Shown piece by piece: positions 6,148 to 29,482 of a DNA stretch of 32,000 nucleotides (the stretch's first letter is position 1; every line of letters begins with the position of its first letter). The stretch comes from Patescibacteria group bacterium (GTDB lineage Bacteria > Patescibacteriota > Patescibacteriia > 2-01-FULL-39-33), in contig JBAZMW010000001.1 in the NCBI GenBank assembly GCA_041649575.1, forward strand, positions 210,001-242,000, given 5' to 3'. The notes below the pieces were generated by a model. It was not told the DNA's origin, searched no databases, and saw only the letters and a list, made by a program, of their open reading frames with translations. The position numbers and the translations under genes are program-made.

Positions 6148-7986
6148 ATGTCAGGAAAATTATTTAAATTAAAATCTAAATTTGCCCCAGCGGGCGATCA
6201 GCCTCAAGCGATTGAGAAGCTTTGGCATGGCCTTGAGAAAGGGGATGCTTTTCAAACGCTGCTGGGCGTTACGGGGTCAGGCAAAACTTTTACCATGGCC
6301 AATTTGATAGCCCGACTAGATCGTCCAGTACTAGTGATGGCGCCGAACAAGGCTTTGGCGGCCCAGCTTTATCGCGAGTATAAAAATTTTTTTCCGGAAA
6401 ACAGTGTTAATTATTTTGTGTCTTACTATGATTATTATCAGCCGGAAGCGTACCTGCCGACGACTGATACTTATATCGACAAAGAAGCGATGATTAATGA
6501 AGAGATAGATCGTTTGCGGCACCAGGCCACTTCGGCTTTGTTGTCGCGACGGGATGTGATCGTGGTGGCCTCGGTTTCCTGTATTTACAACCTGGGTCTG
6601 CCGGAAAGCTATTTGGAGTCGCGTCTGCATTTGACGGTCGGCCAGCCGATTGTTCGCGCCGATCTGATTCGCCAACTGGTCAAAATCCAGTTTACCCGGA
6701 CTCCTGGTGAGCTGAAACGCGGGACTTTTAGGGTGCGCGGTGATGTTTTTGAGATTATGCCGGCAGCGGCGCAGGTGGTTTACAGAGTAGAATTAGCGGA
6801 GCAAAAAATAAAAGAAATTCACATTATCAATCAATTGACAAGAAAAAGATTGGCAAGTTTGTTCGAGCTTGTTGTTTTTCCGCCCAAACACTTTGTTTCT
6901 TCCAAGCCGGAAATCGAAAGAGCCATTAAAGATATTAAATTAGAATTGAAAGACAGATTGAAATACTTTAATAAAAAAAATTTATATTTGGAGACGGAGC
7001 GACTAGAGCGGCGCACTCGTTATGATATGGAAATGTTGAAAAGTATCGGTTATTGCCATGGCATCGAGAATTATTCGCGTCATTTGACTGGCAAACTGTC
7101 GGGTGAAGCGCCGGAGACATTACTAGCCTATTTTCCTAAAGATAAGAAAGGCCAGCCAGACTTTTTGACTATTATGGATGAATCACATATCGGCTTACCG
7201 CAAGTGCGAGGCATGTACGCTGGCGATCGAAGTAGAAAAGAAGTTTTAGCGCAGTATGGTTGGCGATTGCCCTCCGCTTTGGATAATCGGCCACTGACTT
7301 TTGACGAGTTTTTGCGGCGTATTGGCCAAACTATTTTTACTTCAGCGACTCCGGGTGATTGGGAAATTAAGCATTCGACTCAAGTGGCGGAGCAGGTGAT
7401 TCGGCCGACCGGACTAATTGATCCGCCAGTAGAGGTAAGGCCGGTTTTTGACAAAAAGAATAATTACAGTCAGGTTGATGATGTGATTAAAGAAGCTAGA
7501 AAAATAGTAAAGCAGGGTGAGCGGGCGATTATTAATACTTTAACTAAGAAGCAAGCTGAGGATTTGGATAATTATTTGCGCGGCAAGGGAATCAAATCCG
7601 ATTACTTGCACAGCGACATTAATACGATCCAGCGCACCGAAATTCTAATGAATTTCCGCAAAGGCAGGTTCGATGTTTTAATCGGCGTCAATTTGCTCCG
7701 GGAAGGCCTGGATTTGCCGGAAGTGACTTTAGTGGCTATTTTGGATGCGGATAGGGAAGGATTTTTGCGCAGCGAGGTATCGCTAATGCAAACCATGGGT
7801 CGGGCGGCCAGAAATGTCACCGGCAAGGTAATTTTGTATGCTGATAATCTGACCGGTTCGATTAGAAGGGCGATAAAAGAGGTAGCCAGAAGGCGTAAAT
7901 TACAAATGGAATACAACAAGCAACACGGCATTCGGCCGGAGACAATTATCAAAGAGATTGAAAATTTTTTGGATATTGAAAATTAA
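6148..7986 (+). CDS. uvrB: Excinuclease ABC subunit B (short form lacking the C-terminal UVR domain)
   Basis: 612 aa. GVTGSGKT Walker A, DESH box and helicase motifs. Ends at ...YNKQHGIRPETIIKEIENFLDIEN, without the roughly 60-aa C-terminal tail of E. coli UvrB. Confidence 0.95.
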   Translation: MSGKLFKLKSKFAPAGDQPQAIEKLWHGLEKGDAFQTLLGVTGSGKTFTMANLIARLDRPVLVMAPNKALAAQLYREYKNFFPENSVNYFVSYYDYYQPEAYLPTTDTYIDKEAMINEEIDRLRHQATSALLSRRDVIVVASVSCIYNLGLPESYLESRLHLTVGQPIVRADLIRQLVKIQFTRTPGELKRGTFRVRGDVFEIMPAAAQVVYRVELAEQKIKEIHIINQLTRKRLASLFELVVFPPKHFVSSKPEIERAIKDIKLELKDRLKYFNKKNLYLETERLERRTRYDMEMLKSIGYCHGIENYSRHLTGKLSGEAPETLLAYFPKDKKGQPDFLTIMDESHIGLPQVRGMYAGDRSRKEVLAQYGWRLPSALDNRPLTFDEFLRRIGQTIFTSATPGDWEIKHSTQVAEQVIRPTGLIDPPVEVRPVFDKKNNYSQVDDVIKEARKIVKQGERAIINTLTKKQAEDLDNYLRGKGIKSDYLHSDINTIQRTEILMNFRKGRFDVLIGVNLLREGLDLPEVTLVAILDADREGFLRSEVSLMQTMGRAARNVTGKVILYADNLTGSIRRAIKEVARRRKLQMEYNKQHGIRPETIIKEIENFLDIEN

Positions 7987-8011
7987 AACCCGCAGGCTGG
8001 AGTGCTTGCGG
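7978..8011 (-). terminator. Minus-strand intrinsic terminator abutting the uvrB stop codon
   Basis: On the minus strand: CCGCAAGC-ACTCCA-GCCTGCGG (8011-7990), then GTTTTAATTTT (7989-7979). The T-tract overlaps the uvrB stop. Confidence 0.6.
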
Positions 8012-8048
8012 TGTTAGAGAACAGGGGGGGGGATGTGCTGCTAGCGGG

Positions 8049-8293
8049 TTAAGGTGCGCGGTGATCCGGAGGTGGGAGGGGGAACTTCGGGTGATTTGAT
8101 TTGAAGCCCGAGGAGTCCGTGTTAGAAATGTGCTGGCCGACAACTTTGACCGCGTTGCCGACTTCCTGGTAACAGCCCAGGGCGAAGTTATGAGGAAGAA
8201 GAGGGGCGTTAGGGTTAGGATCAGTCCCAAAAACAGAGCCATCACGCAACCTTTGGGGGGAGGCCCTAGTGGCGTTTCATTGGTGTTTTCCAT
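8049..8293 (-). CDS. Small island gene A; hypothetical protein with unresolved reading frame (possible frameshift)
   Basis: AAGGAG (8306-8301), 7 nt, then ATG at 8293 opens a frame (MENTNETPLGPPPKGCVMALFLGLILTL...) that runs through the terminator to 7949. The -1 frame has no ATG/GTG start but ends at 8049, before the terminator, with ...KFPLPPPDHRAP. Confidence 0.35.
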
Positions 8294-8334
8294 GATCAGT
8301 CTCCTTGTGGGGTTAATGTACGCATTGATAGTTA

Positions 8335-8362
8335 ATTATATTGTTTAATAGTAATTTGTCAA
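8335..8362 (-). promoter_or_regulatory. Promoter of island gene A
   Basis: Minus strand: TTGACA (8362-8357), 16-nt spacer, TATAAT (8340-8335). It starts directly after the upstream unit's terminator. Confidence 0.6.
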
Positions 8363-8363
8363 T

Positions 8364-8414
8364 AAAAAAAAGAGTCCCCGAAAACCAGTCTTCCGCGAAG
8401 ACCGGTTTTCGGGG
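8364..8414 (-). terminator. Strong intrinsic terminator of island gene B
   Basis: 18-bp stem, one G-U pair (plus coordinates 8376-8393 / 8397-8414), 3-nt loop. On the minus strand it is followed by ACTC and T8 (8371-8364). Confidence 0.85.
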
Positions 8415-8430
8415 GGTTTGTCAACCTTGT

Positions 8431-8631
8431 CTAACTGACAAGAGCGAGCGGCTGAGCAACGGACGTACACTCATATGGATACGCCCAGCGCTTGCCAGCC
8501 AGGCCAGCAAAGTGAAGAGTCAGAAAGTCTCCTGGCTCGGCGACGACACTAGCTGTCTTGCCGTTAAGTTTGTTTCCTCCTTGAGCTGAATTGAAGATGA
8601 CGGTTCTGTTCTGGCGATGTGTTTCACTCAC
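8431..8631 (-). CDS. Small island gene B; hypothetical 66-aa protein
   Basis: GAGGAG (8645-8640), 8 nt, then GTG at 8631. Product MSETHRQNRTVIFNSAQGGNKLNGKTASVVAEPGDFLTLHFAGLAGKRWAYPYECTSVAQPLALVS. A terminator lies 17 nt after the stop. Confidence 0.55.
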   Translation of the reverse strand: MSETHRQNRTVIFNSAQGGNKLNGKTASVVAEPGDFLTLHFAGLAGKRWAYPYECTSVAQPLALVS

Positions 8632-8675
8632 AGCTGTTTCTCCTCATAGTTGTTGACAGAAAATGGAGCTTCTGT

Positions 8676-8704
8676 AGTGTATTACATAATAAGAATTTTG
8701 TCAA
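8676..8704 (-). promoter_or_regulatory. Promoter of island gene B
   Basis: Minus strand: TTGACA (8704-8699), 17-nt spacer, TACACT (8681-8676). The -35 lies only 6 nt from the uvrA ATG. Confidence 0.45.
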
Positions 8705-8709
8705 ATATT

Positions 8710-11403
8710 ATGCAAGAAAAAATAATTATTCGCGGTGCGCGGGTGCATAACCTGAAGAATATTTCCTTGGAAATACCGCACAATAAGTTGACGGTGATGA
8801 CCGGAGTCTCGGGAAGCGGCAAATCTTCCTTGGCTTTTGATACTATTTTTGCCGAAGGTCAAAGGCGTTATATCGAATCATTATCGCCTTACGCGCGGCA
8901 ATTTCTGGGACAGATGAAGCCGGCCGATGTGGACGAGATTATTGGTTTGGCGCCAGCCATTTCCATTGATCAAAAAGCGCTTTCTCACAATCCACGCTCC
9001 ACAGTCGGCACGCTGACCGAGATTTATGATTATTTACGCGTGCTTTATGCGCGACTAGGGGAGGTGTTTTGTCCTAAATGCGGGCACAAGATCGAAAAAT
9101 TGGCCCTGGATGAGATGTTAGACATTATTATTAATCGCGCTAAAGAGAGTAAGGCAGAGTATGTGACTATTCTATCGCCGGTAGTAATAGATAGAAAGGG
9201 AGAGTATTACCAATTGCTTTATGATTATTTAAATCTTGGTTATGGGGAGGCGCGGATTGATGGGGAGCTTCATTCTTTGCATGAAAAAGTCAAACTAGCC
9301 AGATATAAGAAACACAGTATTGAAATAGTGATTGACAAGGTGATGACTCGCCCTGTTAAATCCGGCGAAGCCGGACCATTAGAAATAGTATTTAACAGGG
9401 TAAATGATGAGGGTCGGCTGTCGGAAGCAGTGGAAAATGCCATGTCTTATAGTAAGGGGTTAGCAATAGCTGTCTTTGGCAAAGAAGAAACTTTGTTGTC
9501 AGCTAATTGGACCTGCCCCAATGACGGCTTTGCTTTTCCCGAGGTGGAACCGCGATTGTTTTCTTTCAACTCACCACACGGCGCTTGTCCGGAGTGTCAC
9601 GGCTTGGGCAGAAAAGAAAAGTGGGTTTTAAGGCAAAAAGAAAGTGAAGATGATGATAATGAAAATAAATATGAATATCAAGTGGAAGAGTGTGCTGTTT
9701 GCCAAGGTAAACGGTTGAAGCCGGAAGCTTTGTCGGTTAAGGTAAATGATAAAAATATTAATGAGGTTTGCCTGTTACCCTTAGATAAGGCGGCTAAGTT
9801 TTTTGAAAGTTATTATAATAAAATGACCGAGCGACAGAAAACTATTGCCGAGGATGTGGTGATGGAGATTAGTCAGCGCTTGGATTTTTTGCTTAAGGTC
9901 GGGTTGAATTATTTATCGTTAAGCCGGGAGGCGGAGACGCTCTCGGGCGGCGAGGCGCAAAGGATTCGTCTGTCTAGTCAGATAGGCTCGCATTTGTCGC
10001 ATACTCTATATGTTCTTGACGAGCCGACTATCGGCTTGCATGAGCGTGACACAGACAGATTAATTGAAACCCTAAAGTCGTTGCGAGACCAAAACAATAC
10101 GGTAATTGTAGTGGAGCACGACGAGCGGACTATTCTGGCCTCTGATTATTTGGTCGATTTGGGACCGCTGGCCGGACGGCACGGTGGTGAAGTGACGGCC
10201 ATAGGAGAGACTAAAAAACTTCTCTCTGGTGTCATTGCGAGGAGCGAAGCGACGAAGCAATCTCGTGGCAAAGAGAATGGGATTGCCACCAGTCTCGCCG
10301 AGCCAAGGCGGACGCTCCCTGTGGTCGCTCGCAATGACAGTTTAACATTGCAATATCTGCGTGGCGATAAAAAAATCGATTTAGACAGAACCAGGCGGCA
10401 CAAAGACAGCGAGGCGATAAAAATTATTGGCGCTCGAGCAAATAATTTGAAGAATATTAATGTCGATATACCACTGCGAAAATTGGTGGTGATTACCGGC
10501 GTATCTGGTAGCGGTAAGTCGTCTTTGCTTTATGATGTTTTGTATAATAATGTGGTTAAAATCAAGCATGGTTTTCGTAAAGATTTAGTTGAGGTGGCCA
10601 AAATTTTGGGCACGGAATATGTTAATAAAATCGTGATTGTGAATCAGTCGCCCATCGGCCGCACGCCGCGTTCTAATCCGGCCACTTACACAGGAATTTT
10701 TACGCCCATCAGGGAGTTTTTCAGCCAGTTACCCGAAGCCAGAGAGCGTGGCTATACGCTCTCCAGATTTTCTTTCAATCGTCCAGGCGGCCGTTGCGAG
10801 TCTTGCGATGGAGCTGGTTTTAATTTGATTGAAATGCATTTTCTGCCGGCAGTGCTGGTGGAATGCGAGGTTTGCCACGGCAAGAGATTTAATCGCGAAA
10901 CATTGCAGGTGAAGTACAAAAAGAAAAACATTGCCGAGGTTTTGGATCTGACAATCGAGGAAGCCATAGGATTTTTCGACGGCCAATATTTGATCACCGA
11001 CAAACTAAAGGTTTTAGATGAAGTCGGTTTGGGATATTTGCGTTTGGGCCAATCGGCGACCACGCTTTCTGGCGGTGAGGCGCAAAGAATAAAACTAGCC
11101 AGGGAATTGACGCATACGCTCGGTTCAAAAACTTTGTATTTATTGGATGAACCGTCGGTTGGTTTGCATTATTATGATATAGAGCTGTTGCTTCAGGTTT
11201 TAAATAAATTAATTGATAGAGGAAATAGCGTGGCGCTCATCGAACATAATATGCACATTATCAAAGAAGCCGATTATATTATCGATTTGGGGCCGGAAGG
11301 CGGCGAAGGAGGCGGCAAGGTGGTGGCACAGGGCGCGCCGGAAAAAATTGTTGATAGTAAGGGGAGTCTGACGGGAGAATATTTAAAGGGGTATTTGAAA
11401 TAA
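8710..11403 (+). CDS. uvrA: Excinuclease ABC subunit A
   Basis: Start chosen at [18 protein letters not shown], the canonical UvrA N-terminus; the ORF track extends to 8650. Two GVSGSGKSS Walker A motifs, two LSGGE signatures and Zn-finger Cys pairs. Confidence 0.95.
10231..10338. repeat. 108-nt palindromic repeat element inserted in-frame (36 codons) in uvrA
   Basis: Termini GTCATTGCGAG (10231-10241) / CTCGCAATGAC (10328-10338), with internal GCAATC..GATTGC pairing. Translates as [36 protein letters not shown] between LLSG and SLTLQYLRG. Confidence 0.75.
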
Positions 11404-11424
11404 AACTGGTCTATAAAACCAAAC

Positions 11425-11463
11425 ATCCCTACCTGACAAGTCAAGATAGGGATTTTTGATTTC
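11425..11463 (+). terminator. Intrinsic terminator after uvrA
   Basis: ATCCCTA (11425-11431) / TAGGGAT (11447-11453) with an inner TGAC-AA-GTCA, followed by TTTTGATTT. Confidence 0.6.
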
Positions 11464-11542
11464 CTGTTACGGAAATCTCAGAGGTCGGGCCAGTACCTCT
11501 ATTTAGCATTTTCATGCCGGCCTTATTGTGCGTTCGCCCGCT

Positions 11543-11731
11543 CTACGACTCGAGCAGTTGGCGCAACAGTTGTTGTGCTTTTCTCTGTCTCCGCGACTTA
11601 ATAAGAGCCAAGACGACGGAAGAGGAATTAAGCACTTTAGTCTGTGGAGCTCCCTCCAATATCTCACTTTCCTCTTTTGTGAGTTCGGGTGATGTCAGTT
11701 GGAGGATCTGTTTTACAACACTCTGGTTCAT
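11543..11731 (-). CDS. Small island gene H; hypothetical 62-aa helical protein
   Basis: AAGGAG (11744-11739), 7 nt, then ATG at 11731. Product MNQSVVKQILQLTSPELTKEESEILEGAPQTKVLNSSSVVLALIKSRRQRKAQQLLRQLLES. Roughly 70-nt 5' UTR containing hairpin CACAAGCA-ACAG-TGCTTGTG. Confidence 0.55.
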   Translation of the reverse strand: MNQSVVKQILQLTSPELTKEESEILEGAPQTKVLNSSSVVLALIKSRRQRKAQQLLRQLLES

Positions 11732-11818
11732 GGCGTAGCTCCTTTTTTACACCGTTTCGGTTTAGAGTACACAAGCACTGTTGCTTGTGGGCTCAGTTGT
11801 CAGTGTTACGACTTATTT

Positions 11819-11847
11819 ATCATAGCATATAATAATATTTTTGTCAA
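11819..11847 (-). promoter_or_regulatory. Promoter of island gene H
   Basis: Minus strand: TTGACA (11847-11842), 17-nt spacer ending in TGC, TATGAT (11824-11819). Confidence 0.6.
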
Positions 11848-11933
11848 GTATATTTACTATTTTTATTGAAAATAGTGGTTATTTTTGGCTAAAATTATTT
11901 TAAAAAATCTATATAAATGTTAATATATATGAA

Positions 11934-13139: not shown

Positions 13140-13141
13140 AC

Positions 13142-13171
13142 TTGTTGTTGATTTTTGTTTTGTGCTATAAT
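13142..13171 (+). promoter_or_regulatory. Promoter for the 13227 gene
   Basis: TTGTTG (13142-13147), 18-nt spacer ending in TGC, TATAAT (13166-13171). Confidence 0.5.
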
Positions 13172-13226
13172 GAAAGCGATTAAAAAGACTATATAATTTA
13201 ATTCATAAAAAATTTAAACAAAAGCT

Positions 13227-13910: not shown

Positions 13911-13936
13911 TTAATAATTCAAATAAATTAAAATCT

Positions 13937-14275
13937 ATGTTTAGCAATAAAAAATTTTTGAAAAGGTCTTTGTCCTTATTTAGTTTGGTGTTGATTTTGG
14001 TTTTGGCGGCTGGAATTTTGGGCGGTTGCGGCCAGAATAATGACGAGGAAGATTATGGCGCTAACATCAACGAGGAAGAAGTGGCCACTCCGGATAATAT
14101 TAATACGGAAGAAATTGATACTAATCAAAACGCGGGAGCCGACGAGACAAATCAGCCAGTGGTCGAAGAGGTTAATGTCGACGCTGAAATTAATCAACTA
14201 GACGCTTCGATTCAAGGGGTAAGTCCGGATGATTTTAAGGATGATGGCTTGTCAAACAAAGAATTAGGCATATAG
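13937..14275 (+). CDS. Acidic lipoprotein, unknown function
   Basis: Lipobox ILGGC after a hydrophobic signal sequence. The mature part is rich in D/E/N. Confidence 0.65.
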   Translation: MFSNKKFLKRSLSLFSLVLILVLAAGILGGCGQNNDEEDYGANINEEEVATPDNINTEEIDTNQNAGADETNQPVVEEVNVDAEINQLDASIQGVSPDDFKDDGLSNKELGI

Positions 14276-14284
14276 TTTTAAATT

Positions 14285-14316
14285 AAAAAAGCTCCCGACC
14301 AGTCTGGAGCTTTTTT
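14285..14316 (+). terminator. Intrinsic terminator after the lipoprotein gene
   Basis: AGCTCC (14290-14295) / GGAGCT (14306-14311), flanked by an A-run and T6. Confidence 0.75.
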
Positions 14317-14371: not shown

Positions 14372-14974
14372 ATGATGCTCACCAGAAAACGGGTAATTGA
14401 GATTATCAAATCGGGCGGTATTGGCATTATGCCCACTGATACTATTTATGGTTTGGTGGGCTTGGCTTTGGATAAGAAAGCAGTGGAAAGAATTTATCAG
14501 GTTAGGCAAAGGAAGCCGGATAGGCCGCTGATAATTTTGATCGGTTCTTTGAGTGATCTAAAATTATTCGGCGTGGACATAGATTCTAAAACAAAAGAAG
14601 TGTTGGCCACTTATTGGCCGGGAGCAGTGAGTGTGGTTTTGCCTTGCAAGTATAAAAAATTCGAATATCTGCATCGCGGCGCCAAAACCCTGGCTTTTCG
14701 CTGGCCTAAAGGCTTTGCTTTAGAAGAGACGCTTCTGAAAACCGGACCACTGGTTGCGCCCAGCGCCAATCTGGAAGGCAGGGAGCCGGCCAAAAATATT
14801 AATGAGGCCAAAAATTATTTTTTGGACAGCGTGGATTTCTATTATGGCCACAAAGATCTGGTTTCCTTGCCTTCAACTTTGATTAAAATAGAAAACGGCG
14901 AAATTCTGGTTTTGCGTCAAGGCGCGGTCGCTATAAAAAATAAACGCCCGGCCGACGTCGGAGACATCGGCTAG
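14372..14974 (+). CDS. tsaC: L-threonylcarbamoyladenylate synthase, short YrdC/TsaC type
   Basis: 200 aa. PTDTIYGL, RPLIILIG and VAPSANLEG motifs of the Sua5/YrdC family. Confidence 0.85.
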   Translation: MMLTRKRVIEIIKSGGIGIMPTDTIYGLVGLALDKKAVERIYQVRQRKPDRPLIILIGSLSDLKLFGVDIDSKTKEVLATYWPGAVSVVLPCKYKKFEYLHRGAKTLAFRWPKGFALEETLLKTGPLVAPSANLEGREPAKNINEAKNYFLDSVDFYYGHKDLVSLPSTLIKIENGEILVLRQGAVAIKNKRPADVGDIG

Positions 14975-15003
14975 GCGGTCTGGGTGCTCGTTTCACCGAG
15001 CAA

Positions 15004-15264
15004 CTAGGAGTTGGCGGTGACAACAGTCGTGTTTCTTTTCATTTCCTGGCAGACGGCGCTCACGACCTTGCTGACCGTATGAGGGACTCCTGCCTGGAGA
15101 TCGGGCCAAACCCCGAATCGCAGTTCGCCATTGACGGCCAGGGTTTCCAGTCCCATGACGATAGTCTGGTCGTTCACCTCGCCCTCCTGGGCGAAACCAT
15201 AACCCACCAGGAATTCCTCGACAAAGGCGCGAACCTCCATCTCAACGCTACTTGCGCAACACAT
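15004..15264 (-). CDS. Small island gene C; hypothetical acidic 86-aa protein
   Basis: AGGAGGG (15279-15273), 8 nt, then ATG at 15264. Product MCCASSVEMEVRAFVEEFLVGYGFAQEGEVNDQTIVMGLETLAVNGELRFGVWPDLQAGVPHTVSKVVSAVCQEMKRNTTVVTANS. Only a weak hairpin (TGCTCG/CGAGCA) lies downstream. Confidence 0.55.
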   Translation of the reverse strand: MCCASSVEMEVRAFVEEFLVGYGFAQEGEVNDQTIVMGLETLAVNGELRFGVWPDLQAGVPHTVSKVVSAVCQEMKRNTTVVTANS

Positions 15265-15319
15265 GGCCTATACCCTCCTGTTGTGGTTACCACCGGTTGT
15301 CCAAAACAGCACAAGATTT

Positions 15320-15348
15320 ATTATAACAGGCATTTTTTATTTAGTCAA
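15320..15348 (-). promoter_or_regulatory. Promoter of island gene C
   Basis: Minus strand: TTGACT (15348-15343), 17-nt spacer, TATAAT (15325-15320). Confidence 0.6.
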
Positions 15349-19381: not shown

Positions 19382-19401
19382 AATAAAAAATATTTTCATA
19401 T

Positions 19402-19451
19402 AAAAAAAATCGACCCCGCACCTAGTTGCTTGTTCAGCTTTCGGTGCGGGG
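19402..19451 (-). terminator. Intrinsic terminator of island gene D
   Basis: Minus strand: CCCCGCACC...GGTGCGGGG (9-bp stem; plus coordinates 19414-19422 / 19443-19451), followed by TCGA and T8. Confidence 0.8.
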
Positions 19452-19475
19452 GTGGACCAAGTTGCGATGGTGGCG

Positions 19476-19949
19476 TTACCTCTCGGGTGGTGGCAACCAA
19501 CCCACGAAGTCTTGATAGAGCCGCGGGTACATCCGTTCACGCCACAAAACGACTGGATCGTAGTCGGACACAGAAATCCCCTCGGCCTCGCAGAAAATCG
19601 TGATGTACGGCTCCTGGTGAACCAGGCCGCTACTAATATCGAGCCACCACATATCTTTCCGCGGCACTTGCTCGTGGTTGAGGTATTTCGTCAGCACTTC
19701 GGCGCGCCAGTTGGCGGTATCGCTTACTTCTACGGCTGTCGTGGCTTGGTGCTGCCGTGTGATTTCTTTGAGCAGCCAAAGAGTAGAAATAAACGTGGCA
19801 ATACAGAGGAGAACCAAGGATATTACCCATAAATAGCGGTAAAGTTTTCTCTGTATCTTCCGCGTAAGTAACACCACAAGCAGGGTGATAGTCGTCGCCA
19901 CAAAAGCCCAGGCGAAGACGACAGATAGAATAGACACAAACAGGTCCAT
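19476..19949 (-). CDS. Island gene D; membrane protein (2 N-terminal TM helices) with a C-terminal WWL-motif domain; paralog of 28794..29384
   Basis: GAAGGAG (19963-19957), 7 nt, then ATG at 19949. 157 aa. The segment WRAEVLTKYLNHEQVPRKDMWWLD...LWRERMYPRLYQ aligns with repeats in gene E. Ends with WLPPPER. Confidence 0.7.
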   Translation of the reverse strand: MDLFVSILSVVFAWAFVATTITLLVVLLTRKIQRKLYRYLWVISLVLLCIATFISTLWLLKEITRQHQATTAVEVSDTANWRAEVLTKYLNHEQVPRKDMWWLDISSGLVHQEPYITIFCEAEGISVSDYDPVVLWRERMYPRLYQDFVGWLPPPER

Positions 19950-20035
19950 TTCCAGACTCCTTCTATTTCGAATGTGCGTTAGACGATTCTTCTAGGCGAT
20001 CGTCACCAGCCTTCTGGTCATCAAATCATTATATA

Positions 20036-20064
20036 ATTATAGCATACATACAATATTTTGTCAA
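20036..20064 (-). promoter_or_regulatory. Promoter of island gene D
   Basis: Minus strand: TTGACA (20064-20059), 17-nt spacer ending in TGC, TATAAT (20041-20036). Preceded by CAATAAATAATA. Confidence 0.7.
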
Positions 20065-22497: not shown

Positions 22498-22505
22498 TTA
22501 ACCGG

Positions 22506-24197
22506 GTGTTTAAAAGATTAATCAACTCTAATTCAAAGTCAATTACTTCGGCGGCGATAATTATCGGCGGCCTGTCTTTGGTCAGTCGTTTGGTGGGAAT
22601 TTTGCGGGACAGAATTTTGGCCAGTGAGTTCGGAGCCGGCGACGTGCTAGACGCCTACTATGCCGCTTTTCGCCTGCCGGACTTTGTTTACAATTTGATA
22701 ATCCTAGGCGCGGTTTCGGCGGGGTTGATACCGGTGTTTACCTCGCTATTGACTAAAAATCAGAAACAAGAAGCCTGGAAGCTCATAAATAGCATCCTTA
22801 ATTTGTTATCTATCGGACTGATTGTCGCTTGCGTAATTCTTTTTATTACGGCGCCGTGGCTGATGCCTTTGGTCACGCCAGGATTTTCTCAAGCCAAACT
22901 GAAGCTGGTGGTTGGATTGTCGCAAATTATGTTTTTAAGCCCGATATTTTTGGGAATATCGGCAATTTTTGGTTCGGTTTTACAATCCTTTAGGCGGTTT
23001 TTTGCCTATTCCATCGCACCGATTTTTTATAATGTCGGCATCATTATTGGCGCTCTATTTTTCGTCAAGTGGTGGGGTGTTTATGGCCTGGCCTGGGGCG
23101 TGGTTCTGGGCGCCCTGCTTCACCTGATTATTCAATTGGCCCCGATTTTTTTGACCGGTTATAAATATACCCTTGACCTAAATTTAAAAAATAAAAACGT
23201 TATTCAGGTTGGCAAATTAATGTTGCCGCGGACTTTGAGCCTGCTGATTACTCAAATCAATTTTTTGATCATTACCATAGTGGCTTCAACCCTGGCAGTC
23301 GGCAGTTTGGCGATTTTTAATTTATCGAATAATTTACAGAATTTCCCGTTGGGAATTTTTGGCGTCTCGCTGGCGGTGGCGGCCTTACCGGTTTTGTCTT
23401 CGCTCTGGGCCGAGAAGAAAAAAAATGAATTTGTGGCCACTATTTCCACTACTTTCAGGCAGACGTTGTTTTTTATTGTGCCAACTTCGGTGTTAATGTA
23501 CGTGCTTAGGGCGCAAATCGTCCGCGTTATTTTGGGCGCCGGCAATTTCAATTGGTACGACACCAGATTAACCGCAGCCAGTTTGGCAATTTTTTGCCTG
23601 GGACTGTTCGCCCAAGGCGCTTTCCCTCTGATTATTCGCGGTTTTTATGCCTTGCATAACACCAAAACCCCGTTCTACATTGGCCTGGCCACCATGGTTG
23701 TCAATTTTTTATCACTGATATTTTTCCGCTGGCTTTATAGTTTTCATAACGGCTGGTTGTTTTTTACCACGGCGATTTTGAGAATTGACGATTTGTCGCA
23801 ACTAGTGGATTTCCGGGTTTTGGCTCTGCCGGCGGCAATCACGGTTTCTTCGGTTTTTGAATTATTGGCGCTGATGATTTATCTAAGAAAAATAATTGGG
23901 CGGCTGGACGGCCGGAAAATTTTGGATTCGGTTTTCAGAATCTTATTTGCTTCCTTGGGGGCGGGACTGTTTGCCTACGGCACCTTGCAGATTATGGAGA
24001 AGTTTGTGCGGACCGAAACTTTCGTTGGTATTTTTACCCAAGGCTTATTGGCCGGGCTAATTGGTTTGGCCGGTTATTGGCTGATAGGATTTTTGTTGCG
24101 GATGGAGGAAATGGCGATTTTTATGTCTTCGATAAAACGCAAACTGTTTAAGTCGGCGCGGGTAGTGGCTGAAGATAATCTGGGTGAAGCGGATTAA
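22506..24197 (+). CDS. murJ: Lipid II flippase MurJ (MviN family)
   Basis: 563 aa, polytopic. N-terminus ...SRLVGILRDRILASEFGAGDVLDAYYAAFRLPD is typical of MurJ. GTG start 8 nt after the preceding stop. Confidence 0.9.
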   Translation: MFKRLINSNSKSITSAAIIIGGLSLVSRLVGILRDRILASEFGAGDVLDAYYAAFRLPDFVYNLIILGAVSAGLIPVFTSLLTKNQKQEAWKLINSILNLLSIGLIVACVILFITAPWLMPLVTPGFSQAKLKLVVGLSQIMFLSPIFLGISAIFGSVLQSFRRFFAYSIAPIFYNVGIIIGALFFVKWWGVYGLAWGVVLGALLHLIIQLAPIFLTGYKYTLDLNLKNKNVIQVGKLMLPRTLSLLITQINFLIITIVASTLAVGSLAIFNLSNNLQNFPLGIFGVSLAVAALPVLSSLWAEKKKNEFVATISTTFRQTLFFIVPTSVLMYVLRAQIVRVILGAGNFNWYDTRLTAASLAIFCLGLFAQGAFPLIIRGFYALHNTKTPFYIGLATMVVNFLSLIFFRWLYSFHNGWLFFTTAILRIDDLSQLVDFRVLALPAAITVSSVFELLALMIYLRKIIGRLDGRKILDSVFRILFASLGAGLFAYGTLQIMEKFVRTETFVGIFTQGLLAGLIGLAGYWLIGFLLRMEEMAIFMSSIKRKLFKSARVVAEDNLGEAD

Positions 24198-24207
24198 TTT
24201 TTTTTTC

Positions 24208-24260
24208 TTAAAATAAACAAGCCAGCGATACTCTTCTCCGAAGAGAAATTTCTCGCTGGC
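24208..24260 (-). terminator. Intrinsic terminator of island gene F
   Basis: Minus strand: GCCAGCGA...TCGCTGGC outer stem (24260-24253 / 24228-24221) and inner CTCTTC/GAAGAG, followed by TTGTTTATTTT. Confidence 0.7.
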
Positions 24261-24284
24261 AGGTAGTTCGTGGCTTTGCAGCCT

Positions 24285-24479
24285 TTAGGGAGGTGGTAGT
24301 TCGTTCATCAGGTTGGCCACAAGCATCAGCACGATGCCAATGGCGACTGCGACGGCTATGACCGTTTTGACCAGCCTTGTTTTGCGGCGGAAACGAAGGA
24401 AGAGGAAGTCGATGAGGAAGACGACTGCGCACAGGACGAGGCCGCCCCAAAACATTACGCTAGCCCAGTTGATATTCAT
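24285..24479 (-). CDS. Island gene F; 64-aa two-TM membrane protein
   Basis: AGGAG (24491-24487), 7 nt, then ATG at 24479. Product MNINWASVMFWGGLVLCAVVFLIDFLFLRFRRKTRLVKTVIAVAVAIGIVLMLVANLMNELPPP. Confidence 0.65.
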   Translation of the reverse strand: MNINWASVMFWGGLVLCAVVFLIDFLFLRFRRKTRLVKTVIAVAVAIGIVLMLVANLMNELPPP

Positions 24480-24540
24480 AGTAACGCTCCTGTCGGCTTA
24501 GAGCCGGTTGATGGCCATGGCTTCGAAAGTACAACAAACA

Positions 24541-24569
24541 ATTTTAGCAAATAGATTTATATTTGTCAA
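24541..24569 (-). promoter_or_regulatory. Promoter of island gene F
   Basis: Minus strand: TTGACA (24569-24564), 17-nt spacer ending in TGC, TAAAAT (24546-24541). Confidence 0.7.
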
Positions 24570-24581
24570 TTCAATTTTTAT

Positions 24582-24818
24582 AAAAAAATGACGGGGCACG
24601 ATCCTTGCGGACGTACCCCTGACATGTAGTCGGATTTCTCCACACCGCGGCGGTGCGAAGAGCGCCTGCAGACTACATTGCATGTCTTTGGCCGACTCGC
24701 CGGTTAGAGCGAGTTGTCGGAGCACCATGGTTGGGCCCGTTGCATAAGACCTGTGCAACGGACCGATGGTTACCCCTAGGCAGAGATAGGTGCTCTGTCT
24801 CACCTAGAAAGTACTAAC
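24582..24818 (-). ncRNA. Candidate ~237-nt structured non-coding RNA of unknown family
   Basis: Has its own consensus promoter and intrinsic terminator (GGGGTACG..CGTGCCCC, then GTCA and T7). At least four internal hairpins. No SD or convincing ORF. The 101-aa track ORF reads through the terminator and the next promoter. Confidence 0.5.
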
Positions 24819-24824
24819 ATAGCC

Positions 24825-24853
24825 ATTATAGCACACAGGTATATTTTTGTCAA
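24825..24853 (-). promoter_or_regulatory. Promoter of the candidate ncRNA
   Basis: Minus strand: TTGACA (24853-24848), 17-nt spacer ending in TGC, TATAAT (24830-24825). Preceded by CAATAAATGGCTA. Confidence 0.7.
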
Positions 24854-24919
24854 TAGCCATTTATTGATAATTTATATAAATTTGTTAAATATTATCTAAA
24901 TTTAAACAAAATAAAATAT

Positions 24920-24948
24920 TTGATAAAGACGGTATTTTTTGCTAAAAT
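24920..24948 (+). promoter_or_regulatory. Promoter of lepA
   Basis: TTGATA (24920-24925), 17-nt spacer ending in TGC, TAAAAT (24943-24948). Leader of about 12-19 nt with no SD. Confidence 0.6.
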
Positions 24949-24967
24949 CTAATAATATCTTTATCTT

Positions 24968-26740
24968 ATGAATAACAATATACGCAACTTCTGTATTATT
25001 GCCCACATCGACCACGGTAAGTCCACTTTGGCCGACCGAATGCTAGAAATTACCGGCACAGTCAGTAAACGCGAGATGAAAGACCAGCTGTTGGATCAAA
25101 TGGATATTGAGCGAGAAAGAGGAATTACTATTAAACTCCAACCGGTGCGGATGAATTATCAGGGTTATGAGCTTAATTTAATTGACACGCCGGGTCATGT
25201 GGATTTTACTTACGAAGTTTCGCGCAGTCTAATGGCTGTGGAAGGAGCTTTGCTTTTGGTTGATGCCACTCAAGGGGTGCAGGCGCAAACCCTGGCTAAT
25301 TTGTATTTGGCCCTGGAGTATGATTTAAAAATTATACCCGTGATTAATAAAATCGATTTGCCTAATGCGCAGGTGGAAAAGACAGTCGAAGAAATTATAA
25401 ATTTACTGGGCTGTTCACGAGAAGATATTTATAATACTTCCGGCAAAACCGGTCAAGGAGTGGAAGAAATAATCAAAGCCGTTATCAGCAAAGTGCCGGC
25501 GCCCAAAAAAGAAGAAAGCCGGCCGCTTAAATGCTTGATTTTTGATTCGGTTTATGACGAATATCGAGGGGCGATAGCTTATGTCAGAGTTTTTGAAGGT
25601 AAGATAAAAAATGGCGACAAGATAAAATTCGTTTCCAATGATTTGCCGATTGAGGCGCTGGAAGTCGGCCACTTCGCTCCCAAGCATATAAAGGATCAGG
25701 AGTTGGCTGCCGGCGAAATCGGTTATATCGTCACCGGGCTGCATGAGGTGGCGCAATGCAAGGTCGGCGATACCATCACTTTGGCGGCAGACGAGGTAGA
25801 GGCCCTGCCGGGATATAAAGAGGTCAAGCCGATGGTCTACGCCGGAGTTTTTTGCAAAGACGGCAGCGATTTTTCTCGCCTCAGAGAGGCGATAGAAAAA
25901 TTAAAACTCAATGACGCCGCCCTGGCTTATGAGCCGGAAAATTCGCAGGCCTTGGGTTTTGGTTTCCGTTGTGGCTTTTTGGGGTTGCTTCATCTGGAAA
26001 TATTTCAGGAGCGGCTGAAGCGGGAGTTTGGATTGGAACTGGTAGTGACTGTGCCAAGCGTGGCTTTCAAGGGTTACTTCAAAAATGGCAAAGAAGAAAT
26101 CGTTTATAATCCGGCCGCTTTTCCCGACCCAACTTTTATCGAGCAGGTGGAGGAGCCGATTATGAAAGTCGATATCTTCACTCCCAAGGATTATTTGGGG
26201 GGAGTAATGCAGCTGGCCGCGGAGAAAAGAGGAGTTTATTTAAACACCGAGTATCTGGATGAAGATTTGGCGGTGATACACTATCATCTGCCTTTAACGC
26301 AACTGATTGTTGATTTTTATGACAGGCTAAAATCAATTTCCTCCGGTTACGCCTCGCTTAATTATGATTTTTATGGTTATCAGAAAACCGAGGTGGTAAA
26401 AATGGATATTCTGGTGGCTGAAGAAAAAGTGGAGGCGCTTTCAATTATTACTTACCAAGACACCGCCTATCAGGTTGGCAAAAAAATCGTGGAGATTTTA
26501 AAAGATGTTTTGCCGCGCCAGCAGTTTGTGGTGAAAATTCAGGCGGCAGTGGGCGGCAAAGTCATTGCCGCTGAAAGGATCTCGGCCTTAAAAAAAGACG
26601 TGACAGCCAAGCTCTATGGCGGTGACTGGACGCGGCGGGCCAAATTACTTGAGAAGCAGAAAAAAGGCAAGAAAAAGATGATGAATTTGGGTAAAGTGGA
26701 TATTCCCACCGAAGCCTTCCTGGCGGTTTTAAAAAGGTAA
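24968..26740 (+). CDS. lepA: Elongation factor 4 (translational GTPase LepA)
   Basis: 590 aa. NFCIIAHIDHGKSTLADR G1 motif, DTPGH, NKID, and a LepA-specific C-terminal domain. Confidence 0.95.
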   Translation: MNNNIRNFCIIAHIDHGKSTLADRMLEITGTVSKREMKDQLLDQMDIERERGITIKLQPVRMNYQGYELNLIDTPGHVDFTYEVSRSLMAVEGALLLVDATQGVQAQTLANLYLALEYDLKIIPVINKIDLPNAQVEKTVEEIINLLGCSREDIYNTSGKTGQGVEEIIKAVISKVPAPKKEESRPLKCLIFDSVYDEYRGAIAYVRVFEGKIKNGDKIKFVSNDLPIEALEVGHFAPKHIKDQELAAGEIGYIVTGLHEVAQCKVGDTITLAADEVEALPGYKEVKPMVYAGVFCKDGSDFSRLREAIEKLKLNDAALAYEPENSQALGFGFRCGFLGLLHLEIFQERLKREFGLELVVTVPSVAFKGYFKNGKEEIVYNPAAFPDPTFIEQVEEPIMKVDIFTPKDYLGGVMQLAAEKRGVYLNTEYLDEDLAVIHYHLPLTQLIVDFYDRLKSISSGYASLNYDFYGYQKTEVVKMDILVAEEKVEALSIITYQDTAYQVGKKIVEILKDVLPRQQFVVKIQAAVGGKVIAAERISALKKDVTAKLYGGDWTRRAKLLEKQKKGKKKMMNLGKVDIPTEAFLAVLKR

Positions 26741-26973: not shown

Positions 26974-28721
26974 AAAATTGGCAAGTAATACCTAAGGTCA
27001 CCAAAGATTTTATTGATAAATTTCCCGAGATCAATAATGTCGTTTTGCAGCTTTTGGCTAATCGCGGTTTAAGCAGTCAGGAAGATGTTGACAATTTTTT
27101 GTTTCCCAATTACGAAGAGCAGGCCTTGGATCCGTTTTTGTTCAAGGATATGCCTAAAGCGGTGGAACGGGTCTTGCTGGCCTGGCAAAAAAAACAAAAA
27201 GTGATGATCTTTGGCGATTACGACGCCGACGGGGTTTGTTCGACGGTGCTGCTTTTTTTGACTCTGAAAGCCCTGGGACTGGAAGTGGAGACCTATATTC
27301 CGTTTCGAGAAGGAGAGGGCTATGGATTGAATACTAAAGTTGTTCAGCAATTTATCGAGCAGGGTTATGAGCTTTTGATTACCGTCGATTGCGGCGTGTC
27401 TAATAAAAACGAGATAGAAATTCTAAACGACGGAAAAGTAGACGTTATTATTTTGGATCATCATGAGGAGCCGATTGAATTGCCGTCGGCGCTGGCGATT
27501 ATTAACCCGGCCTTAAAGACTAGCGGCTATCCAGAGATTGAGCTCTGCGGGGCGGGTGTGGCTTTCAAATTCGTGCAGGCGTTGATGAAAGAACAGGAGC
27601 GAACCAACAGCCCCATAAAATTGCCGACCGGCTTTGATAAATGGCTACTAGACTTGGTGGCCGTGGCTACCGTTGGCGATATGGTGCCGCTAATCAAGGA
27701 AAATAGAATTTTTGTCAAATATGGATTGACTGTTCTAGCCAAGACCAAAAATTTGGGATTGAAAAAATTGATGGAAACAATCAACAATAAAACGGGGAGA
27801 TATGATGCTGAATATCTGGGTTGGCGGGTGGTGCCAAGAATTAACGCGGCTGGAAGAATCAAACACGCTTCGGTGGCCTTTAATTTATTGACCAGCAGCA
27901 GCAAGGAAGAGGCGGCCAAGTGGGTGGAAATTTTAGAAAACAACAATACGCAACGACAGCAGATAACTGAAAAAATTCTAGAACAAGCCGTTTATCAAAT
28001 CGGCGAAGTTAAAGCCGAAGAAAAAATTTTATTTGCCTCTGGCGACGAGTGGTCGGCCGGGGTGGTGGGGCTGGTGGCTGGAAAAATTTGCGATCGCCAC
28101 TATCGTCCCACCTTGGTTTTTAGCCGTGAAAAGGAAGGAGAAAAAATAAAGTATGTCGGCTCGGGTAGGAGCATCGAGGAATTTGATATTACAGCCGGTC
28201 TCAAAGAATGCCATGAATTTTTGGCTCGTTATGGCGGTCATCCCCAGGCCTGCGGCTTGACGATTTTAGGCGAGGATAATTTTAATAATTTCAAACAAAG
28301 AATAACGGCTTTAGCGCAAAAACAATTGGCTGGTGTGGATTTAATGTCCAGATTAATAATCGAGGCCGAAGTGAAGTTGGCGGATATCAATTGGGAATTG
28401 GCTGACGAGCTGGAAAAGTTTGAGCCTTATGGCGAAGGCAATAGAAAACCGCTGCTAGCGGCTTTTGGTTTAAAGGTTGAAAGAGTTGATACTGTCGGGC
28501 AGGATGGCAAACATCTAAGGATGATGGTTAGCCAGGACGACCCGCAAACTCCAATTCGTCCCGATTGGAAAAAGTTGATCGGTTTTTCCTTCGGGGATTG
28601 GTGCGCCAAACTCAAAGTTGGAGAGGAGATTGATATTGTTTTTGAGTTGGGGGTTAATGAGTGGAACGGGAATAGGGAATTGCAATTAAAAATCATTGAC
28701 TTAAAATTGAGTGAAAAATAA
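26967..28721 (+). CDS. recJ: Single-stranded-DNA-specific exonuclease RecJ
   Basis: 584 aa. DHH family motifs (GDYDADGV, VDCG, ILDHHE), DHHA1 region (GGHPQACG), C-terminal OB-like domain. Confidence 0.9.
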   Translation: MSKNWQVIPKVTKDFIDKFPEINNVVLQLLANRGLSSQEDVDNFLFPNYEEQALDPFLFKDMPKAVERVLLAWQKKQKVMIFGDYDADGVCSTVLLFLTLKALGLEVETYIPFREGEGYGLNTKVVQQFIEQGYELLITVDCGVSNKNEIEILNDGKVDVIILDHHEEPIELPSALAIINPALKTSGYPEIELCGAGVAFKFVQALMKEQERTNSPIKLPTGFDKWLLDLVAVATVGDMVPLIKENRIFVKYGLTVLAKTKNLGLKKLMETINNKTGRYDAEYLGWRVVPRINAAGRIKHASVAFNLLTSSSKEEAAKWVEILENNNTQRQQITEKILEQAVYQIGEVKAEEKILFASGDEWSAGVVGLVAGKICDRHYRPTLVFSREKEGEKIKYVGSGRSIEEFDITAGLKECHEFLARYGGHPQACGLTILGEDNFNNFKQRITALAQKQLAGVDLMSRLIIEAEVKLADINWELADELEKFEPYGEGNRKPLLAAFGLKVERVDTVGQDGKHLRMMVSQDDPQTPIRPDWKKLIGFSFGDWCAKLKVGEEIDIVFELGVNEWNGNRELQLKIIDLKLSEK

Positions 28722-28750
28722 ACAAGGAGTGTCAATGTTGGCACTCCTTG
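28711..28750 (-). terminator. Intrinsic terminator of island gene E; T-tract overlaps the recJ stop codon
   Basis: CAAGGAGTG (28723-28731) / CACTCCTTG (28742-28750). On the minus strand it is followed by TTTATTTTTCAC. Confidence 0.7.
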
Positions 28751-28793
28751 GTAAAGGACGGGTGGTATTCTGGCGTGGCGTTCTAGGCCCCCA

Positions 28794-29384
28794 TCAAGTT
28801 GCCGGCGGCAGCTTGATGGTGTAACTATTTAGAGCCGTGAGCAGTTCTTGAGGCGGGCCGTCGAAACCGATGGCTAGAATCTTTAGAACGAACGACTCTT
28901 TGTTTCGGAGCCACCAAGCATCTCCCGGGCTTAGCGGTTCTCTGGCGAAGTACTTGGCCAGGACGTCGATGCTCGCCTGAAGAGAAGAGAGCTCTTGAGG
29001 CAGGCCTTTCCTTGTCGGGTGGCCAGAGAGCTTGATCCGGCGGTCGTCCATAGTTATTCGCGCCTGGTAGTAGAGCTTGTCCCACAGACGGCTTGGCGTT
29101 TGGTAGTGAAATTTGCCCCACCAATAGCTGTTGTCGTCCGGCCGAATTTTTCTGGCAATCGGTAGCACTTTCGCCTGCTTGGTTCTTAGCCACCAGGCTT
29201 GTTCAGGGTACACAGCGTTGTCCTGAAAGTAGTAGTTTAGGATCTCGACCTTCCATTCGTATTGCGGGTCGGGTGGTGCCAGCGGGAAAAGCCGCGAGCC
29301 GGCCCAACCGCAAAGCACAACCTCGACAATCAGAAACAGCACCAGGGCATGACGATCCCTCATAGAAAGTTCAATTCCATTCAT
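28794..29384 (-). CDS. Island gene E; membrane-anchored protein with two WWL-motif repeats; paralog of 19476..19949
   Basis: GGAGG (29398-29394), 9 nt, then ATG at 29384. 196 aa. N-terminal anchor HALVLFLIVEVVLCGWAG. Internal repeats VEILNYYFQDNAVYPEQAWWLRTKQAKVL and IDVLAKYFAREPLSPGDAWWLRNKESFVL. Ends with KLPPAT. Confidence 0.7.
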   Translation of the reverse strand: MNGIELSMRDRHALVLFLIVEVVLCGWAGSRLFPLAPPDPQYEWKVEILNYYFQDNAVYPEQAWWLRTKQAKVLPIARKIRPDDNSYWWGKFHYQTPSRLWDKLYYQARITMDDRRIKLSGHPTRKGLPQELSSLQASIDVLAKYFAREPLSPGDAWWLRNKESFVLKILAIGFDGPPQELLTALNSYTIKLPPAT

Positions 29385-29452
29385 GGTTCTCTCCCTCCCT
29401 CGCCAAGGCGCGGGTGATTGAAGTTAGAAGCGGTCGACCGTCGACCGTCCTT

Positions 29453-29482
29453 ATTTTACAGTCAAAATTCTTAATTTGTCAA
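29453..29482 (-). promoter_or_regulatory. Promoter of island gene E
   Basis: Minus strand: TTGACA (29482-29477), 18-nt spacer, TAAAAT (29458-29453). The 5' UTR contains a tandem GTCGACC GTCGACC. Confidence 0.55.

Follow-up and report, generated by a model that had tools for sequence, protein, structure and literature searches.

In Bacteroidia, the ribosome ignores Shine-Dalgarno (SD) sites: bS21, bS18 and bS6 mask the anti-SD, and rpsU, which encodes bS21, is itself SD-led and autoregulated (PMC7797042, PMC9976891, PMC13000453). A trade-off between SD and mRNA structure has been described as a statistical tendency within genomes, where SD-less genes have locally unstructured starts (Scharff 2011, PMC3121790). 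Here, we analyse a 32,000-nucleotide (nt) stretch of DNA from a member of the Patescibacteria (the window), on whose minus strand seven small SD-led units, designated A, B, H, C, D, F and E, are interspersed with conserved genes that lack an SD. On balance, these units are probably self-contained monocistronic accessory modules with fast turnover, which encode orphan small proteins and use SD-led initiation. SD-poor lineages, ORFans and the SD/structure trade-off are known pieces; new is their clean coincidence in a lineage of the Candidate Phyla Radiation (CPR). A literature search found no paper that describes how the use of SDs in CPR bacteria differs between classes of genes.

The locus resembles the situation in Bacteroidia in that most genes are SD-less with A/U-rich, unstructured starts, and the small SD-led minority implies a retained anti-SD. 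In contrast to Bacteroidia, SD-led genes are numerous here and occur at about one per 5 kb. They vary by species, consist of accessory genes or orphans specific to the lineage and do not comprise rpsU, which is not present in the window. Furthermore, the host belongs to the CPR, and its conserved genes have sigma-70 type promoters and are leaderless or have short leaders. Unlike the trade-off of Scharff, the partition is all-or-none and coincides with gene conservation. With ORFan islets from horizontal gene transfer (HGT), the units share atypical GC content, codon and amino-acid usage, presence or absence between close relatives and the lack of an assignable function. Similarly, the SD-led set of one relative, L003, is a recognisable radical-SAM/SPASM accessory cluster. 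In contrast to such islets, they are single-gene modules with their own promoter and terminator, scattered one per slot, with no integrase, tRNA-adjacent or repeat hallmarks and no donor homologues in the collections searched. Integron cassettes are likewise small open reading frames (ORFs), most of them orphans, which act as units of insertion and vary from one relative to the next. They differ in that the units have no attC (each 3' end is an ordinary GC hairpin followed by a T-run), no integrase and no array, carry their own promoters and are dispersed.

The window is part of a metagenome-assembled genome (MAG) of a Patescibacteria member of the CPR, related to Parcubacteria/Buchananbacteria; Buchananbacteria are members of the Parcubacteria group. 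The host is a groundwater bacterium with a tiny genome. Two further public assemblies are 100% identical to the window. Its large ORFs encode UvrB, UvrA, UvrC, a Sua5-like protein, a PfkB kinase, PPDK, an ADP-forming acyl-CoA synthetase (gene acs), MurJ, LepA, RecJ and RNase H, and its RNA genes are two tRNAs and RNase P RNA. From the same genome, about 42 kb were covered, i.e. the window and 10 kb upstream on the same contig, where genes for a 1275-amino-acid (aa) surface protein, DnaX, a TraG-like ATPase, a 175-aa protein and, on the window's minus strand, CorA are located. The nearest species-level relatives are a Candidatus Buchananbacteria MAG and another Patescibacteria MAG with 58-59% aa identity in the synthetase. 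Two metagenome contigs, L009 and L010, are closer (83% and 81% aa identity in PPDK). Together with L003 and L004 and the genome under study, they form the comparison set of five related genomes. No rRNA was found in the window or the fetched loci, and the ribosomal protein genes lie outside the sequence covered.

All seven minus-strand ORFs were found at the coordinates and with the SD motifs that the sequence-only reading had named, and the near-consensus promoter it had reported before each unit was confirmed; all seven are of the sigma-70 type. Unit A (7949..8362) has the promoter TTGACA-16-TATAAT (8362-8335), the SD AAGGAG (8306-8301) with a spacer of 7 nt and a 114-aa ORF (8293-7949), 38 nt of which run into the 3' end of uvrB; it has no terminator. 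Unit B (8365..8704) comprises a promoter TTGACA-17-TACACT (8704-8676), the SD GAGGAG (8645-8640) with a spacer of 8 nt, a 66-aa ORF that starts with GTG (8631-8431) and a terminator with an 18-pair stem (8414-8376, -32.5 kcal/mol) whose T-run extends to 8365. In unit H (11395..11847), the promoter TTGACA-17-TATGAT with TG (11847-11819) is followed by an 81-nt leader, the SD AAGGAG (11744-11739), a 62-aa ORF (11731-11543) and a terminator (11453-11406) with T-run. Unit C (14934..15348) has the promoter TTGACT-17-TATAAT with TG (15348-15320), the SD AGGAGGG (15279-15273), an 86-aa ORF (15264-15004) and a terminator (14977-14945) with T-run. In unit D (19399..20064), TTGACA-17-TATAAT with TG (20064-20036) precedes an 80-nt leader with the SD GAAGGAG (19963-19957), a 157-aa ORF (19949-19476) and a terminator (19457-19409) with T-run. 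Unit F (24207..24569) consists of TTGACA-17-TAAAAT with TG (24569-24541), a 55-nt leader, the SD AGGAG (24491-24487), a 64-aa ORF (24479-24285) and a terminator (24264-24217) with T-run. Unit E (28712..29482) has the promoter TTGACA-18-TAAAAT (29482-29453), a 62-nt leader, the SD GAGGGAGGGAG (29401-29391), a 196-aa ORF (29384-28794) and a terminator (28750-28723). The leaders of the seven units are 35-81 nt long and GC-rich.

In a promoter scan of positions 5700-25000, the top seven were those of A, H, C, D and F (11-12 of 12), of an ORF-less unit at 24853 and of the plus-strand gene pfkB; the promoter of B scored 10 of 12. The promoter of RNase P RNA has the same ATTGACAAAAAT...TGnTAnnAT design as those of the units. 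Intrinsic terminators, which had been claimed for most units, are present in six of seven. B, H, C, D, F and E each end in a hairpin and a T-run, with hairpin energies between -14.7 and -32.5 kcal/mol. These hairpins start 16-43 nt past the stop codon in five units and 89 nt past it in H. Two terminators touch neighbouring genes: that of C (14945-14977) overlaps the 3' end of the convergent sua5, whose product is 12 residues longer than the L009 orthologue, its tail being encoded by the complement of the C terminator. That of E (28712-28750) is common to the convergent recJ, the stop codon of which lies within the T-run. A shared 3' repeat was not found among the units; the only DNA they have in common is the promoter. 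The idea that they are copies of one repeated mobile element was rejected, as only the promoter is shared and no remnants of the repeat element similar to a miniature inverted-repeat transposable element (MITE), described below, are present in them. The anatomy of a module comprises a strong sigma-70 promoter, a long leader that is rich in GC and in part structured, a canonical SD, a small ORF and, except in A, an intrinsic terminator.

SD strength was calculated as the duplex energy of the 22 nt before the start (-22..-1) with CACCUCCUUU, and on this scale, which assumes a canonical CCUCC tail that may not be the host's, the units reach (in kcal/mol) -8.3 (A), -8.6 (B), -8.1 (H), -10.8 (C), -8.8 (D), -7.7 (F) and -12.4 (E). 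The GGAG core lies 6-8 nt before the start in six units and 10 nt in one. The 18 other protein genes of the window, for which the sequence-only reading had found no SD, score between +2.9 and -3.8 kcal/mol against -7.7 to -12.4 kcal/mol for the units. Five genes upstream of the window including CorA range from +0.7 to -3.7 kcal/mol. This means that 23 of 23 non-unit genes over 42 kb are without an SD (-3.8 kcal/mol or weaker). The core genes of all four relatives do not have one either. The minus strand of the window contains only 30 AGGAG/GGAGG/GAGGAG motifs, and all seven unit starts are among the few of them with a start codon and an ORF behind.

Among 97 mechanically called ORFs from the five genomes, SD energies are bimodal: 14 are at -8 kcal/mol or stronger, and none falls between -8 and -6 kcal/mol. 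No homologue in the other loci exists for 13 of these 14 (Fisher p = 8e-4 for SD versus conservation), the sole exception being a mis-started murJ. In the genome under study, SD status is likewise associated with Pfam matches (p = 4e-4). Across the five genomes, the core of the 17 SD-led starts is of the GGAG type, with GGGG in L004_168. It is placed 5-10 nt from the start codon and has an A-rich 5' flank.

The core genes were found to be leaderless or to have short AT-rich leaders, as proposed before, with -10 boxes 6-38 nt from the ATG. In the case of pfkB, TATAAT is located 6 nt before the ATG at 15397, and the arrangement is identical in L009. Both pfkB (15385-15399) and the sugar-transferase gene (Bac_transf; 30640-30658, start at 30656) have their -10 box 6 nt from the ATG and are likely leaderless. 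A further configuration is found at tRNA-Val (4694-4770 region): the tRNA, encoded CCA included, ends at 4767, and the polysaccharide deacetylase gene begins with its ATG at 4768, so that tRNA 3' processing would free a leaderless mRNA.

Start regions of the two groups differ in composition and structure. The 30 nt upstream of core starts have a GC content of 19% versus 53% for the units, and the mean fold energy from -30 to +30 is -3.9 versus -10.4 kcal/mol (p = 3.5e-4). The SDs of the units are partly paired in the predicted leader structures. The two sharply different designs of translation initiation that the sequence-only reading had described are borne out by the SD energies. Conserved genes would be translated from leaderless mRNAs or from AU-rich, unstructured leaders of 5-30 nt without an SD. 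At the structured, GC-rich starts of the orphan modules, the 30S subunit would be recruited by SD/anti-SD pairing, on which the modules may rely because their start regions are structured. The presence of SD-led orphan modules beside an SD-less core suggests that the lineage keeps a functional CCUCC tail. Intact and optimally spaced SDs in about 20 ORFs of five genomes indicate that the SD is used, which in turn would require a canonical anti-SD. We infer that both are probably the case.

Location on the minus strand proved not to be a property of the class. An SD-led 86-aa ORF (L089 17000-17260, minus strand of that locus), about 5.2 kb upstream in the same genome, has the window's plus orientation, i.e. 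that of the core genes, and the SD-led orphans of the relatives are found on both strands. This ORF carries GGGAAGGAGG 7 nt before its ATG, has a GC content of 0.59 and a terminator behind, is located between the TraG-like gene and dnaX and was not called in the ENA annotation. Conversely, the native minus-strand genes g2068 (995-2068) and CorA have no SD.

Comparison with related genomes showed that the units are presence/absence indels. L009 is syntenic with the window from uvrC to recJ. Its slot for C is empty, with a sua5-pfkB spacer of 52 nt, and so is that for F, where the murJ-lepA spacer of 160 nt contains neither F nor the neighbouring non-coding RNA (ncRNA). In the D slot of L009, the ppdk-acs spacer, an unrelated 167-aa plus-strand ORF with TGGAGGA is present, and in the H slot upstream of uvrC, an unrelated 326-aa minus-strand ORF with AAAGGAG. 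L010 has five SD-led orphans, and its C slot upstream of pfkB is occupied by an unrelated minus-strand SD-led bicistron. In L004, the D slot upstream of acs contains an SD-led 168-aa minus-strand orphan (L004_168) with a TTGACA promoter; the unit is an indel of about 650 nt compared to L003 (about 80% nucleotide identity), and no target duplications were found at it. For E, the slot is absent in both L003 and L004. The SD-led set of L003 comprises two radical-SAM/SPASM enzymes and a 76-aa ORF with a GC content of 0.41-0.49 versus 0.37 in the core, and the radical-SAM/SPASM cluster, at 0.47-0.49, is a typical accessory island. The modules thus occupy intergenic slots between conserved core genes, and in relatives, each such slot is either empty or taken by a module that has this design but is otherwise unrelated.

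The products are orphans. That none of the seven belongs to a recognised family holds for Pfam, NCBIfam, PHROG and PADLOC, which yielded no match. For E, no homologue besides itself was detected in 5.8 billion clusters and none in a HMMER pass over 1.84 billion representatives, and D matched only itself in the 5.8 billion clusters; for the other five, the searches took in the libraries of known families and the fetched loci. Viral contigs (E, D, C) and plasmids (E) contained no homologues. Neither tblastn nor tblastx of the units against all fetched loci gave a match, and a comparison with the relatives' DNA in any frame and with the rest of the genome returned only an internal repeat in E and a motif shared by E and D. 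Rfam searches for known RNA families that might account for the units (gathering thresholds and E <= 1) returned only RNase P and the two tRNAs. The SD-led proteins of the relatives have no significant match in Pfam, NCBIfam, PHROG or PADLOC, none of them resembles another, and a homology search with L009_326 gave no homologue.

Proper computation confirmed that the units are richer in GC than the core genes (0.531 versus 0.455, Mann-Whitney p = 2.5e-5) and differ in GC at third codon positions (GC3; 0.60 versus 0.50, p = 0.0024). Amino-acid usage deviates as well, with 3.0% versus 0.7% Trp and 6.5% versus 3.8% Pro in units and core genes, respectively. The strand asymmetry of the region is strong, and cumulative GC skew climbs across the whole window. 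The native minus-strand genes g2068 and CorA (L089 20506-21074) have a Leu/Ile/Val codon choice very unlike that of plus-strand genes. The GC3 skew of the units (-0.07) fits neither strand class, with +0.14 for plus-strand genes and -0.43 and -0.51 for g2068 and CorA.

Several observations weigh against interpreting the units as foreign accessory modules that encode SD-led proteins. A part of the Parcubacteria was reported to be without an anti-SD motif (PMC9297842). The contrast in codon usage did stand as such (chi-square 223, p = 7e-27; Leu TTR 57% versus 11% in the comparison of units and core genes), but it is in part replication-strand asymmetry, as is the GC3 contrast: g2068 and CorA likewise avoid TTR and are rich in C at third positions. 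As native minus-strand genes share part of the codon shift, codon usage is weakened as a proof of HGT. GC enrichment is not universal, since the SD-led genes of L010 are not GC-richer. No mobility gene, target duplication or flanking repeat was found at the modules, nor an integrase in the 42 kb of this genome. Frame scores of the units, which are amino-acid-driven, are below those of core genes. Unit A has no terminator and no coding signature, and A and B were called by no annotation pipeline. Finally, no donor was found for the modules. The 'horizontally acquired cargo' of the sequence-only reading did not hold up in this respect: E and D are orphans, and viral contigs and plasmids were negative. 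Acquisition from outside fits the composition, the indels and the radical-SAM cluster of L003, although very large databases contain no donor. Tentatively, we infer that the modules may be foreign, with an undetected donor, rather than formed in situ.

Birth in situ is the alternative to acquisition: the ORFs would be de novo or proto-genes that arose in transcribed intergenic DNA, where GC-rich stretches allow long stop-free frames. E and D without any homologue, low coding-frame scores and atypical amino acids (Trp, Pro) would agree with this, as would a GC3 skew not equilibrated to either strand, the transcription of the units divergently from neighbouring promoters and the marginal appearance of A and B as ORFs. 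On the other hand, the sister genomes offer no alignable non-genic precursor: in blastn and tblastx comparisons, in which the closest relative has 83% aa identity in PPDK, the syntenic sites are either empty or contain unrelated DNA. Spacers of this genome are AT-rich (34% GC at 20001-20500), and DNA with 53% GC amid them would be left unexplained. Moreover, each unit has a full set of optimal signals, and E contains a domain duplication under protein-level constraint, with D as its paralogue. We consider a de novo origin unlikely.

The units could also form a dedicated SD-dependent regulon. Ribosomes would normally ignore SDs, and the orphans would be switched on together when the anti-SD is freed, e.g. 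by life stage, stress or ribosome composition. This would be in line with conserved genes that are fully SD-less next to about 20 accessory ORFs of five genomes whose SD is intact and at the optimal distance, and Bacteroidia, whose SD-blind ribosome coexists with one SD-led regulated gene, provide a precedent (PMC7797042, PMC9976891, PMC13000453). In addition, all units have strong, constitutive-looking promoters, so translation is a plausible control point. However, the leaders have no motif or structure in common beyond the SD. No other shared leader motif was significant; the candidate UCUAAC, with 15 occurrences window-wide versus 10.6 expected, was discarded. Furthermore, the members differ between species and form no conserved set, the SD-led genes of L003 are an ordinary radical-SAM accessory cluster, and nothing beyond the partition itself speaks positively for joint control. 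A regulon of this kind appears quite improbable. We give equally little credence to a broader version, in which the anti-SD tail would be kept only for fast-turnover orphan envelope genes, and SD pairing would be a global switch or a channel for foreign or young genes that couples gene age and initiation mechanistically. In this case, the anti-SD might be masked as in Bacteroidia or by a C-rich, anti-SD-like RNA such as that of unit A.

Whether the units are protein genes at all bears on the accessory-module interpretation as well. The sequence-only reading had counted seven protein genes. This count holds convincingly for D, E, C and F and probably for H and B; for A, which we regard as a true transcription unit, coding is doubtful. 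D and E are open over 156 and 195 codons, each with P ~5e-4 under shuffles that favour open frames. They share the motif (E/D)(I/V)LxxY(F/L)...P..(A/M)WWL..K...VL, of which D has one copy and E an internal duplication (tblastx E = 5e-5). Identical motif residues of D and E are encoded by different codons, which argues for constraint on the protein. C, D, E and F display the coding pattern GC1 > GC2 with GC3 highest (0.72 in F). Among the six possible frames, those of H and F rank first in frame score, B first but weakly, and A fifth. Hydrophobic helices, N-terminal or internal, are predicted for A, D, E and F: D has two N-terminal transmembrane (TM) helices followed by the WWL motif, E an N-terminal TM anchor and F two TM helices. 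Based on these predictions, the products may act at the cell envelope. C is acidic and helical, and its single-sequence AF2 model (pLDDT 72.6, pTM 0.62) found no fold match in PDB; E could not be modelled (pLDDT 36). At NCBI, C (WC518_01065), D (WC518_01080), F (WC518_01095) and E (WC518_01110) are annotated as hypothetical proteins, and H is called by JGI, ENA and Logan, but not by NCBI.

Against this background, it is very unlikely that the units specify small RNAs of a non-coding or regulatory kind, or that their ORFs are spurious frames within transcribed islands of high GC content. In favour of this, RNase P RNA and the ORF-less unit of 230 nt have promoters of the same design, the open frames of A, B, H, C and F are singly not improbable (P = 0.06-0.23), and A is C-rich with anti-SD-like motifs and no coding signal: its GC1/2/3 values are flat, and an antisense frame outscores its own. 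By contrast, all seven units have GGAG 6-10 nt before the start codon that opens the unit's ORF, and in five of them the ORF reaches to within the 16-43 nt before the terminator noted above. Chance hardly produces the ORFs of D and E, the motif of which is kept at the amino-acid level despite codon changes. F and D have clean TM helices, and C a confident fold. Fold z-scores of the unit transcripts range from -2.2 to 0 like those of mRNA controls, compared to -5.3 to -5.9 for the neighbouring ncRNA, and the idea of structured ncRNAs was rejected for the units.

Two details of the ORFs and transcripts are worth mentioning. D, F and E end in Leu-Pro-Pro-(Pro/Ala) at most three residues from the stop codon (..GWLPPPER, ..NELPPP and ..IKLPPAT; end regions 19476-19500, 24285-24300 and 28794-28815), and the proline codons of E differ from those of D and F. 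Such an ending may serve as a peptide motif at the C-terminus, or it may be a PPP-stop that stalls termination. The transcript of unit A (8000-8270, minus strand) contains 35% C and several CUCC-type tracts like the 16S anti-SD region, and CCACCUCC adjoins GGAUCACC at about 8060-8080. By its base composition, unit A could be a C-rich RNA that pairs with SD sequences instead of an mRNA.

A type I toxin-antitoxin-like system, in which F and possibly A, as small hydrophobic peptides, would act as toxins of the membrane restrained by structured leaders and a nearby small RNA, would suit the 64-aa F with its two TM helices, strong promoter, structured 55-nt leader and position directly downstream of a structured 230-nt RNA, but it is hardly credible given that no antisense promoter or complementary RNA was found, that duplexes with this ncRNA or RNA A are mostly like shuffles, that E (196 aa), D (157 aa), the soluble acidic C, B and H do not fit and A fits loosely, and that PADLOC gave no significant match.

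The RNA upstream of F belongs to an ORF-less unit (24582-24853, minus strand) that has a promoter TTGACA-17-TATAAT with TG, a GC-rich RNA of about 230 nt and a terminator. Its RNA has a minimum free energy of -100.6 kcal/mol (z = -5.9), no Rfam match and no SD-led ORF, and the unit is missing from the syntenic spacer of L009. According to this predicted folding, it is a candidate for a novel structured ncRNA. Predicted duplexes of this RNA or RNA A with unit starts were mostly no better than those of shuffles (z -1.2 to +1.6 for the ncRNA) and implausibly long.

If the partition between SD-less conserved genes and SD-led accessory modules applies genome-wide, a single ribosome would translate two populations of mRNAs, each by a mechanism of its own, with gene age as the dividing line. 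This would provide a reason why SD-less lineages keep the anti-SD. At the same time, a strong SD would be a sequence-only marker of accessory or orphan genes in CPR genomes. The modules would also offer a manageable collection of orphan proteins that look highly expressed and membrane-directed and may mediate life as an episymbiont. Some of the ORFs escape gene callers whose training relied on SD-less core genes: A, B and the 86-aa ORF remained uncalled, and F and H were only partly called.

Three further elements lie outside the units. One is a GC-rich spacer of about 130 nt (30470-30600), bordered by the promoter of RNase P on one side and the divergent one of the sugar-transferase gene on the other. 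No ORF was called in it, a promoter of its own was not detected, and L003 and L004 show no conservation of it. The palindromic MITE-like element is about 80-110 nt long, GC-rich and bounded by terminal inverted repeats GTCATTGCGAG...CTCGCAATGAC. Copies are present in the window at 10231-10338 (uvrA) and 16455-16535 (pfkB-ppdk spacer), in L003 at 19897-19986 and 7952-8037 and in L010 at about 7680-7795. The copy in uvrA is in frame and adds about 36 residues, the other copies are intergenic, and the family is common to related species. In addition, there is a conserved intergenic element of about 80 nt with a CTTTTCTTTTT/AAAAAGAAAAG hairpin, found in the window at 20258-20352 (plus strand) and, inverted, at 5946-6006, in L003 at 14048-14123 and in L004 at 5726-5801 and 6068-6136. 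At the acs promoter, this element directly adjoins the -35 box; it also lies upstream of uvrB and, in two relatives, in the spacer between murJ and lepA. It could function as an operator or as some other element associated with promoters.

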